A stretch of DNA of 62,762 nucleotides, counting the filler, from Collodictyon triciliatum (Eukaryota): the NCBI GenBank assembly GCA_043381765.1. It is 7 parts of 7 records of this genome, joined end to end, with 100 filler letters (N's around TTAATTAATTAA, not from the genome) between each part and the next. Parts side by side here need not be neighbours in the genome. Positions count along the whole stretch, not along the records: positions 7,864 to 16,598 come from JBHJMP010000593.1; 6 more parts are not named here. One strand, written 5' to 3'. Positions 14,536 to 15,177 of the stretch are shown in pieces (within the stretch, counting starts at the first letter, position 1; every line of letters begins with the position of its first letter). Made by a program: the position numbers and the translations under genes. The notes beneath the pieces were generated by a model, which worked only from the letters and a program-made list of their open reading frames with translations, ran no database searches and was not told the DNA's origin.

Positions 14536-14962
14536 CATTCTTTTTTTTTTTNNNNNNNNNNNNNNNNNNNNNNNNNNNNNNNNNNNNNNNNNNNNNNNNN
14601 NNNNNNNNNNNNNNNNNNNNNNNNNNNNNNNNNNNNNNNNNNNNNNNNNNNGAAACCAGAATATTAAAAAAAAAAAAAAAAAAAAGGCAAAAAAAAAAAT
14701 TTTTTTTTTTAAATTAAAAAAAAAAAAAGAAAAGGAAAAGAACATTATTTTAATTCATAGACGCTTCGAGAACTCACCATGAGTGGCACAAAAGTTATGG
14801 GTCGTTTAGATATAGAAATGTTTAATGCGAGCCAAGGAACAAAGAAATCTAAGCTGCGTTCTTCTGGGTACTATGTTATCGAGAAGAAGAACAAGGTGGG
14901 TTAGGTATGTGAACGAAAATCTCGAATTCTCCAGGCACAGACATTATCACACAAGAAGGTGG

Positions 14963-14990
14963 TCTTTGGATCGAATAAAGGGAAAAAAAA
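14963..14990 (+). mobile_element. Ultra-short retroposon stub
   Basis: tctttggatcgaataaagggaaaaaaaa between perfect 17-bp TSDs atcacacaagaaggtgg (14946-14962 / 14991-15007). Confidence 0.88.
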
Positions 14991-15177
14991 ATCACACAAG
15001 AAGGTGGAAAGGCGAGTCATTTGCCAATCGCTGTGATGCAGATTTGATGCTGCATTTTGAGACATATATGCGACACTCAGTTCAACATATTTGGTGAAAA
15101 ATAGTTATTACAGGGAGCAGAGCATTCAAGGGAAAAGAAAGAAATTGAGTGTTTTTCTTTTTTTTCTTTTAATTCAG

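Follow-up and report, generated by a model that had tools for sequence, protein, structure and literature searches.

Stringent-type LINE/SINE pairs, such as UnaL2 and UnaSINE1 of the eel, have a common 3′ stem-loop, and SINEs carry a promoter-bearing head and measure 80 nt or more. Microhomology, as Zingler is said to have reported in 2005, is common at the truncation junctions of human L1. The truncation points of these human L1 copies are spread over kilobases and follow no consensus in the sections of one account that treat them (PMC4859970). In Alu, 16% of copies are truncated, with starts in two zones ~40-115 bases wide (~8-45 and 55-170; PMC4666360, Wildschutte et al. 2015), and the part of that study dealing with these points places them at stem-loops and SRP9/14 sites and ascribes them to ORF2p pausing (PMC4666360). 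Among microbes, one strain of Yarrowia lipolytica was found to contain 17 full-length copies of the L1-family LINE Ylli and 104 fragments measuring between 30 bp and 1 kb, and the passages that describe the fragments record no recognised duplications (PMC5014426). More extreme truncation has been described in human as a 6-nt Alu plus A40 (PMC4859970) and as a poly(T)-only insertion in NF1 (PMC3219598). Finally, an outline of target-primed reverse transcription (TPRT) that includes a template jump as well as the addition of non-templated bases is available (PMC2881922).

The DNA considered here, referred to as the window, is the whole analysed stretch of 62,762 nt from Collodictyon triciliatum (GCA_043381765.1), consisting of seven assembly pieces joined by N/TTAATTAATTAA linkers, with positions 7,864 to 16,598 derived from JBHJMP010000593.1. 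The 18-mer CTTTGRATCRAATAAAGG was found to match ten times in the window with up to two mismatches allowed, against a mean of 0.03 and a maximum of 1 in 100 dinucleotide-preserving shuffles. Eight of the ten matches are stand-alone stubs of ~24-30 bases, in which a host-like flank is followed by the 18-mer, zero to three G residues, A4-9 and a further host-like flank, while the other two terminate longer LINE copies. All ten end in an A-run, and so does a further LINE copy on a metagenome contig, L002 (see below). The sample is therefore a single ~60-kb window with n = 8 stubs. An earlier note on this DNA had listed seven stand-alone inserts on four scaffolds; all seven were recovered by the pattern search, on four of the seven assembly pieces, together with an eighth at 39497-39523(+) that had been missed. 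The motif was also seen at the ends of the two longer copies named in that note (56476-56560 and ~31917-32347). The individual copies, with their target-site duplications (TSDs), are as follows:

14946..15007, plus strand: focal stub, found with the motif and re-found by a motif-free TSD scan; TSD 14946-14962, filler base 14963, tip 14964-14981, tail G+A8-9 14982-14990, TSD 14991-15007 (17-bp perfect repeat, score 17).
5429..5486, minus strand: stub; tip 5455-5472, tail G+A7 5447-5454, repeat 5473-5486 and 5429-5442 (14 bp, 1 mismatch).
7422..7482, plus strand: stub; insert 7439-7465, tip 7439-7456 (1 mismatch), tail G+A8-9, 17-bp repeat with 1 mismatch, also in the motif-free TSD scan.
11593..11646, plus strand: stub; insert 11607-11632, tip 11607-11624, tail A7 then T, 14-bp repeat with 1 mismatch.
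35709..35759, minus strand: stub; insert 35720-35748, four filler bases 35745-35748, tip 35727-35744 (2 mismatches), tail GG+A4, perfect 11-bp repeat.
42805..42854, minus strand: stub; insert 42817-42842, two filler bases 42841-42842, tip 42823-42840, tail A6, perfect 12-bp repeat, also in the motif-free TSD scan.
39497..39523, plus strand: stub; tip with 1 mismatch, tail GGG+A6, TSD not recognisable (best repeat score 4).
43761..43784, plus strand: stub; tip with 1 mismatch, tail A6, TSD not recognisable (score 4).
56476-56560 (56459..56577 with flanks), plus strand: 85-base LINE 3′ insert; ~75 LINE bases, A8, T, repeat 56459-56475 and 56561-56577 (17 bp, 1 mismatch).
31917..32347, plus strand: ~431-nt LINE copy, entirely 3′UTR; diverged motif (2 mismatches), A6GA10; flank match short and A-rich, leaving the TSD uncertain.
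7920..7930, minus strand: doubtful shorter stub; last 11 nt of the motif, then an (AAAAGC)n-type A-rich tail; it lies between microsatellites, which make a TSD unreadable.

The score of a flanking repeat is that of the best match without gaps between 40 bases upstream of the motif and 50 bases after it. Repeats of 11-17 bp were found around six of the eight stubs, and around the 85-base insert as well, so that the distinct direct repeats claimed earlier for six of seven stubs hold, with the focal one a perfect 17 bp. The set as a whole also stood the comparison with controls: among 3000 random N-free sites, 2.9% reach the lowest score of a TSD-bearing stub (10), these being most likely tandem repeats, and the chance probability of at least six of eight stubs having such repeats is 1.7e-8. 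Three of the stubs were moreover picked up independently by a scan that ignored the motif and asked only for short inserts ending in A between direct repeats. A T|A step marks the 5′ edge of the TSD in five of seven cases when read directly, leading A's there being inseparable from tail A's. The two stubs with no recognisable TSD (39497 and 43761) belong to the four that depart from the motif pattern, which fits a greater age, and 39497 is probably old; its mismatch is a T at the C of a CpG, the A at the G of the same CpG being permitted by the pattern's R. The A/G alternation at motif position 10 is likewise better read as decay of a CpG (CG to CA, and TA in 39497) than as a subfamily marker, because the position sits within a CpG. 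Stubs 11607 and 14964 have a GGATCG variant in common that is absent from the three long copies. One to three extra G residues stand between AAAGG and the A-tail in five of the eight stubs (tails 5447-5454, 7457-7465, 14982-14990, 35720-35726 and 39515-39523) versus none of the three long copies (P = 0.12), and a single T lies between A-tail and TSD in three copies (5455, 11607 and 56534).

The most striking property of the stubs is the precision of their 5′ ends. All eight open at the same C of CTTTG, a tighter agreement than the start "within a few bases" on which the earlier claim of non-random truncation had rested, and the spread of truncation points expected of ordinary TPRT copies is not seen. 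The TSD directly abuts this C in 5455, 7439 and 11607; in 14964, 42823 and 35727 it is separated from it by one, two and four filler bases, respectively, none of which match the LINE upstream sequence (...GCTGCA). No templated LINE sequence lies upstream of the start C in any of the eight stubs. Possible microhomology, 2 nt in 5455, occurs at only one of the six TSD-bearing junctions, and joining driven by microhomology was rejected on this count. Since the start does not move across tails of A4 to A9, it is set by a position in the template and not by the total length copied, and a constant total insert length was discarded as the determinant for the same reason. The base preceding the start C is A in three stubs and G in none, and a cap signature and an initiator-type start of transcription were both rejected on visual inspection of this base. 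Without their tails, the LINE copies of the window measure 18 nt (eight copies), ~75 nt and ~414 nt, with one doubtful copy of 11 nt. No copy starts between 19 and 74 nt from the tail, in a search that detects any copy of at least 18 nt, and a tail-anchored scan for shorter ones returned ten matches: eight known copies, one A-rich match that is probably due to chance, and the doubtful 11 bases at 7920-7930. The two longer copies indicate that some events get past the stop.

Compared with the 5′-truncated copies of human L1, the locus has the same A-tails, varied TSDs (11-17 bp here), AT-rich nick and occasional filler, and a protein family combining endonuclease, reverse transcriptase (RT) and zinc knuckle; it differs in that eight of ten copies break off 18 nt from the tail, all at one base, with no microhomology. 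Alu resembles it in the clustering of truncation points at defined template positions and in premature completion of TPRT, but here one base, 18 nt in, is where 80% of the window's copies end, and no structure is predicted there. Ylli is likewise a microbial L1-like element with many short 3′ fragments; the copies here have plain TSDs and a fixed breakpoint. The human extreme truncations are also TPRT events that leave a tip or a tail, as rare single events, whereas the equivalent here is the main product of the family. Finally, UnaL2 and UnaSINE1 have a short common 3′ end that is used by the LINE machinery, and the stub here has neither a head nor a supported stem-loop. A keyword search of the open-access literature found no description of a fixed-length class of LINE-tip insertions, a result that does not amount to proof of absence. 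Extreme truncation as such is thus known from rare events, and a fixed 18-base tip as the main product of a LINE appears, from the texts retrieved, not to have been described.

A second LINE-tail family in the window (...AAATTGAAAGGAAGAATAAAA-An) also left stubs, and it follows that very early ending is not special to one family:

60111-60192, plus strand: second-family stub; 50-base insert, perfect 16-bp TSD.
53364-53422, plus strand: second-family stub; ~21-base tip, 14-bp TSD with one mismatch.
About 49874-49928, plus strand: second-family copy; at least 40 bases, no clear TSD.

The sharp single stop has so far been seen only in the first tail family.

Several other features of the window were recorded. 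Tandem repeats account for 63 feature rows, many of them A-rich units of ~100 bases at contig ends adjoining N runs (for example, 7942-8061, 14085-14185, 27818-28114, 47997-48168, 50585-50684, 53604-53699 and 60593-60687). LINE tails may be the origin of A-rich microsatellites, and the (AAAAGC)n-type array that follows the doubtful 7920-7930 stub may be a case in point. Positions 41816-42173 and 44867-45224 are identical over 358/358 bases, one opening an assembly piece and the other closing a contig ahead of an N run, and this duplicate is most likely an unmerged assembly overlap. A GC-rich island at 30780-31300, which follows closely on an assembly joint and precedes the 431-base LINE copy, stands out in the otherwise AT-rich DNA, and its open frame of ~200 codons has no Pfam match. 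Host exons associated with cilia were found on the minus strand at 15744-16457, 32525-32845 and 183-2011, the families being DUF4457, the CCDC113/CCDC96 coiled coil and nephrocystin-3-type TPR, and the organism therefore builds flagella or cilia. Small parts of 14652-16598 (shares 0.05-0.25) were present in seven of nine sequencing runs, the seven being labelled as freshwater metagenomes, a label that is not in itself evidence of habitat.

The identity of the parent LINE was approached through metagenome contigs. A scan for the motif and its tail returned four loci, of which L002 alone is genuine; the other three, L001, L003 and L004, seem to be unrelated DNA in which the motif matches by chance and were rejected as LINE copies. 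L002, a contig of 1157 nt, aligns to the whole of 31917-32347 and then extends upstream, where a 202-codon open frame ends ~420 bases upstream of the tail. The 202-aa frame carries the zf-RVT domain, "zinc-binding in reverse transcriptase" (PF13966; 32.4 bits versus a cut-off of 27.5), and the RT core domain is absent from the 1157-nt contig. An exhaustive HMMER search with the L002 protein found 14 relatives. All four that are full-length (1226-1275 aa; E 3e-8 to 6e-5) possess Exo_endo_phos (APE-type) and RVT_1 domains and three of them zf-RVT, and none has an RNase H match at E<=0.001. These four, P0009-P0012, are 25-38% identical to the L002 frame over the C-terminal domain. One of them, P0009, matches human LINE-1 ORF2p (8uw3) at E 3e-57 versus 1e-23 for R2 proteins, and because of this far better match the parent LINE may reasonably be termed L1-like, a designation that draws on the C-terminal domain and distant relatives rather than on phylogeny. 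A homology search for longer proteins matching the L002 frame found none, P0015 had no match among solved structures, no names came from a cluster look-up, and a bacterial locus matched by the L002 protein was judged spurious. Taken together, the zf-RVT frame on L002 and its endonuclease- and RT-bearing relatives lead to the view that the stubs are tips of an L1-like LINE made by TPRT; A-tails, TSDs and the L002 alignment all agree with the retro-insertion of the extreme 3′ end of a LINE proposed in the earlier note. Within the window, 114 open frames reach at least 90 codons, and the 92 of these that were scanned, like the eleven ORFs taken first, contain no RT or endonuclease domain, the remaining 22 lying mostly across tandem-repeat arrays. 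The stubs may lie outside host coding exons, as the earlier note had it: in the same scan no Pfam domain match overlapped any of them, but the focal stub falls inside a 93-codon stop-free frame that has no family match. The LINE 3′UTR also contains a 10-base direct repeat, CTTTGTATGG / CTTTGAATCG, 26 bases apart (window 32283-32335; L002 107-165, minus strand).

The 18-mer had been described as a LINE 3′ stem-loop, and this did not withstand folding. The proposed stem is an A/U-rich pairing of 4-5 bp, the minimum free energies of the two sequence variants, folded with the tail, are 0 and -1.2 kcal/mol, and 200/200 and 65/200 shuffles, respectively, fold as well. Longer 3′ ends of 83 and 138 bases gave fold z-scores of +0.87 and -0.56 against shuffles. 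When the three long copies are folded to a consensus, none of the 14 pairs is compensatory (a comparison of little power), and the terminal AUAAAGG is bound to a CCUUUGU farther upstream (7 bp) that is part of the CTTTGTATGG / CTTTGAATCG repeat. It is this 10-base direct repeat that allows AUAAAGG to pair with either the CUUUG of the stub or the upstream CCUUUGU, and the pairing is a curiosity without support. Since no stable structure is predicted at or just upstream of the stop and no covariation was seen, a structural roadblock is without support too. At E<=10, Rfam returned four weak, unrelated matches and no ribozyme on L002, it returned no family at gathering score in the window, and ARAGORN detected no tRNA-like fold on either. 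Processing by a ribozyme of a described kind, as a tRNA-like substrate (RNase P/Z) or as a known RNA was rejected on these results.

The reading favoured here, tentatively and at somewhat short of an even chance, is that the stubs are dead-on-arrival TPRT products in which the RT makes a site-specific early stop on the LINE RNA. An endonuclease would nick an AT-rich site, and the T-ended nick would prime on the A-tail of the LINE RNA. Synthesis by the RT would then cover the last 18 nt precisely and break off at the C of CTTTG, most likely where a segment of the 3′UTR that is bound by protein or blocked in some other way has its edge, or before a blocking mark one base upstream; the ORF2p pausing described for Alu provides a precedent (PMC4666360). 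One to four untemplated bases would sometimes be added by the RT, and the short cDNA would be joined to the upstream end at a staggered second nick 11-17 bp away, generating the duplication. TPRT would account for the tails, the duplications and the nick-site bias alike. RT pauses usually spread over 2-3 bases, and a single-base end with filler resembles run-off at a real RNA end at least as much. An RNase H "ruler" was dropped, as it would cut template already copied and the relatives have no RNase H domain. If 80% of the family's integrations do end after 18 nt, a specific cause would be called for, be it the edge of a ribonucleoprotein, a cut in the RNA or a mark on it. The more novel proposal that the template is a defined RNA of 18 nt plus poly(A), cut or trimmed at one phosphodiester, or else carries an RT-blocking mark one base before, is possible but on the doubtful side.

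The principal rival to an early stop by the RT is that the template had been shortened beforehand: the LINE RNA would be cleaved, or trimmed 5′-to-3′ to a protein footprint, just upstream of CTTTG, and the resulting fragment of 18 nt plus poly(A) would be copied by the LINE RT to its end, as run-off. This is a serious possibility, if not the one we would choose. The early stop and the shortened template match the fixed abort point and the processed small RNA named in the earlier note. A base-precise 5′ end in 8/8 stubs whatever the length of the tail, with filler of 1-4 bases in three of six junctions and almost no microhomology, is what the end of a template would give, and these three properties suit a pre-cut RNA somewhat better than an RT stop. 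In the part of the literature concerned, non-templated addition is tied to the template jump (PMC2881922) and truncation of L1 by a host nuclease has been suggested (PMC4859970). The extra G of five stubs and of no long copy hints at a separate pool of RNA, with the P = 0.12 given above. Set against this, the searches of Rfam ribozymes and tRNA-like folds revealed no cleavage mechanism, no splice-site-like junction was seen by eye, and the lack of G before the C in all eight stubs means that there is no cap signature. It is also conceivable that the shared start is an artefact of sampling or detection and that ordinary low processivity truncates the copies at random and very early, as the differing lengths of the second family's stubs (21 nt, 50 nt and at least 40 nt) might suggest; this is improbable in the face of the gap between 19 and 74 nt, the single shorter copy at most that was added, and the probability that geometric truncation with a mean of 10-30 bases would give the same start eight times, which ranges from 2e-8 down to 6e-12.

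That the stubs propagate themselves, as a minimal non-autonomous "SINE" of ~25 nt whose copies are transcribed and copied again, is close to the discrete minimal element envisaged in the earlier note, and is very unlikely. Their uniform size, their number (eight in ~60 kb) and the GGATCG variant that 11607 and 14964 have and the three long copies lack would be in keeping with such an element, but neither a small-RNA head nor a pol III A/B box fits into 18 nt, and the stub lacks a promoter, a head of this kind, an Rfam family and a tRNA-like fold. Its tails follow directly after GG(G), with none of the flank carry-over that read-through transcripts of a stub would give, its sequence is plainly the end of the LINE 3′UTR, and the variants at position 10 fit CpG decay. 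As for an origin outside retroposition, through chance matches to the motif or templated fill-ins at repaired double-strand breaks, it is hardly to be entertained, given ten matches where 0.03 are expected, the A-tails, the L1-type TSD lengths and the identity with the LINE end. A pattern of the CTTTGRATCRAATAAAGG type with its tail occurs only three times in 596 billion bases of prokaryotic genomes, all in bacteria and by chance, and a pattern search of viral contigs gave no matches.

At eight stubs per ~60 kb, the genome would hold thousands of them if the window is typical, and units of 24-30 bp are likely to escape standard repeat annotation. If the template is indeed a cut, trimmed or blocked LINE RNA, the genome of C. 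triciliatum would be filling with the smallest known retroposed units, and the cut or block responsible would act as a brake, host- or self-imposed, that turns most LINE integrations into harmless 25-nt stubs. Each stub adds an AATAAA hexamer and an A-run to introns or intergenic DNA, and these could conceivably act as misplaced poly(A) signals and be the source from which A-rich microsatellites grow. The cause of LINE 5′ truncation is still described as unresolved in the relevant part of the literature (PMC4859970), and a single sharp stop of the kind suggested by these stubs would make that cause testable.
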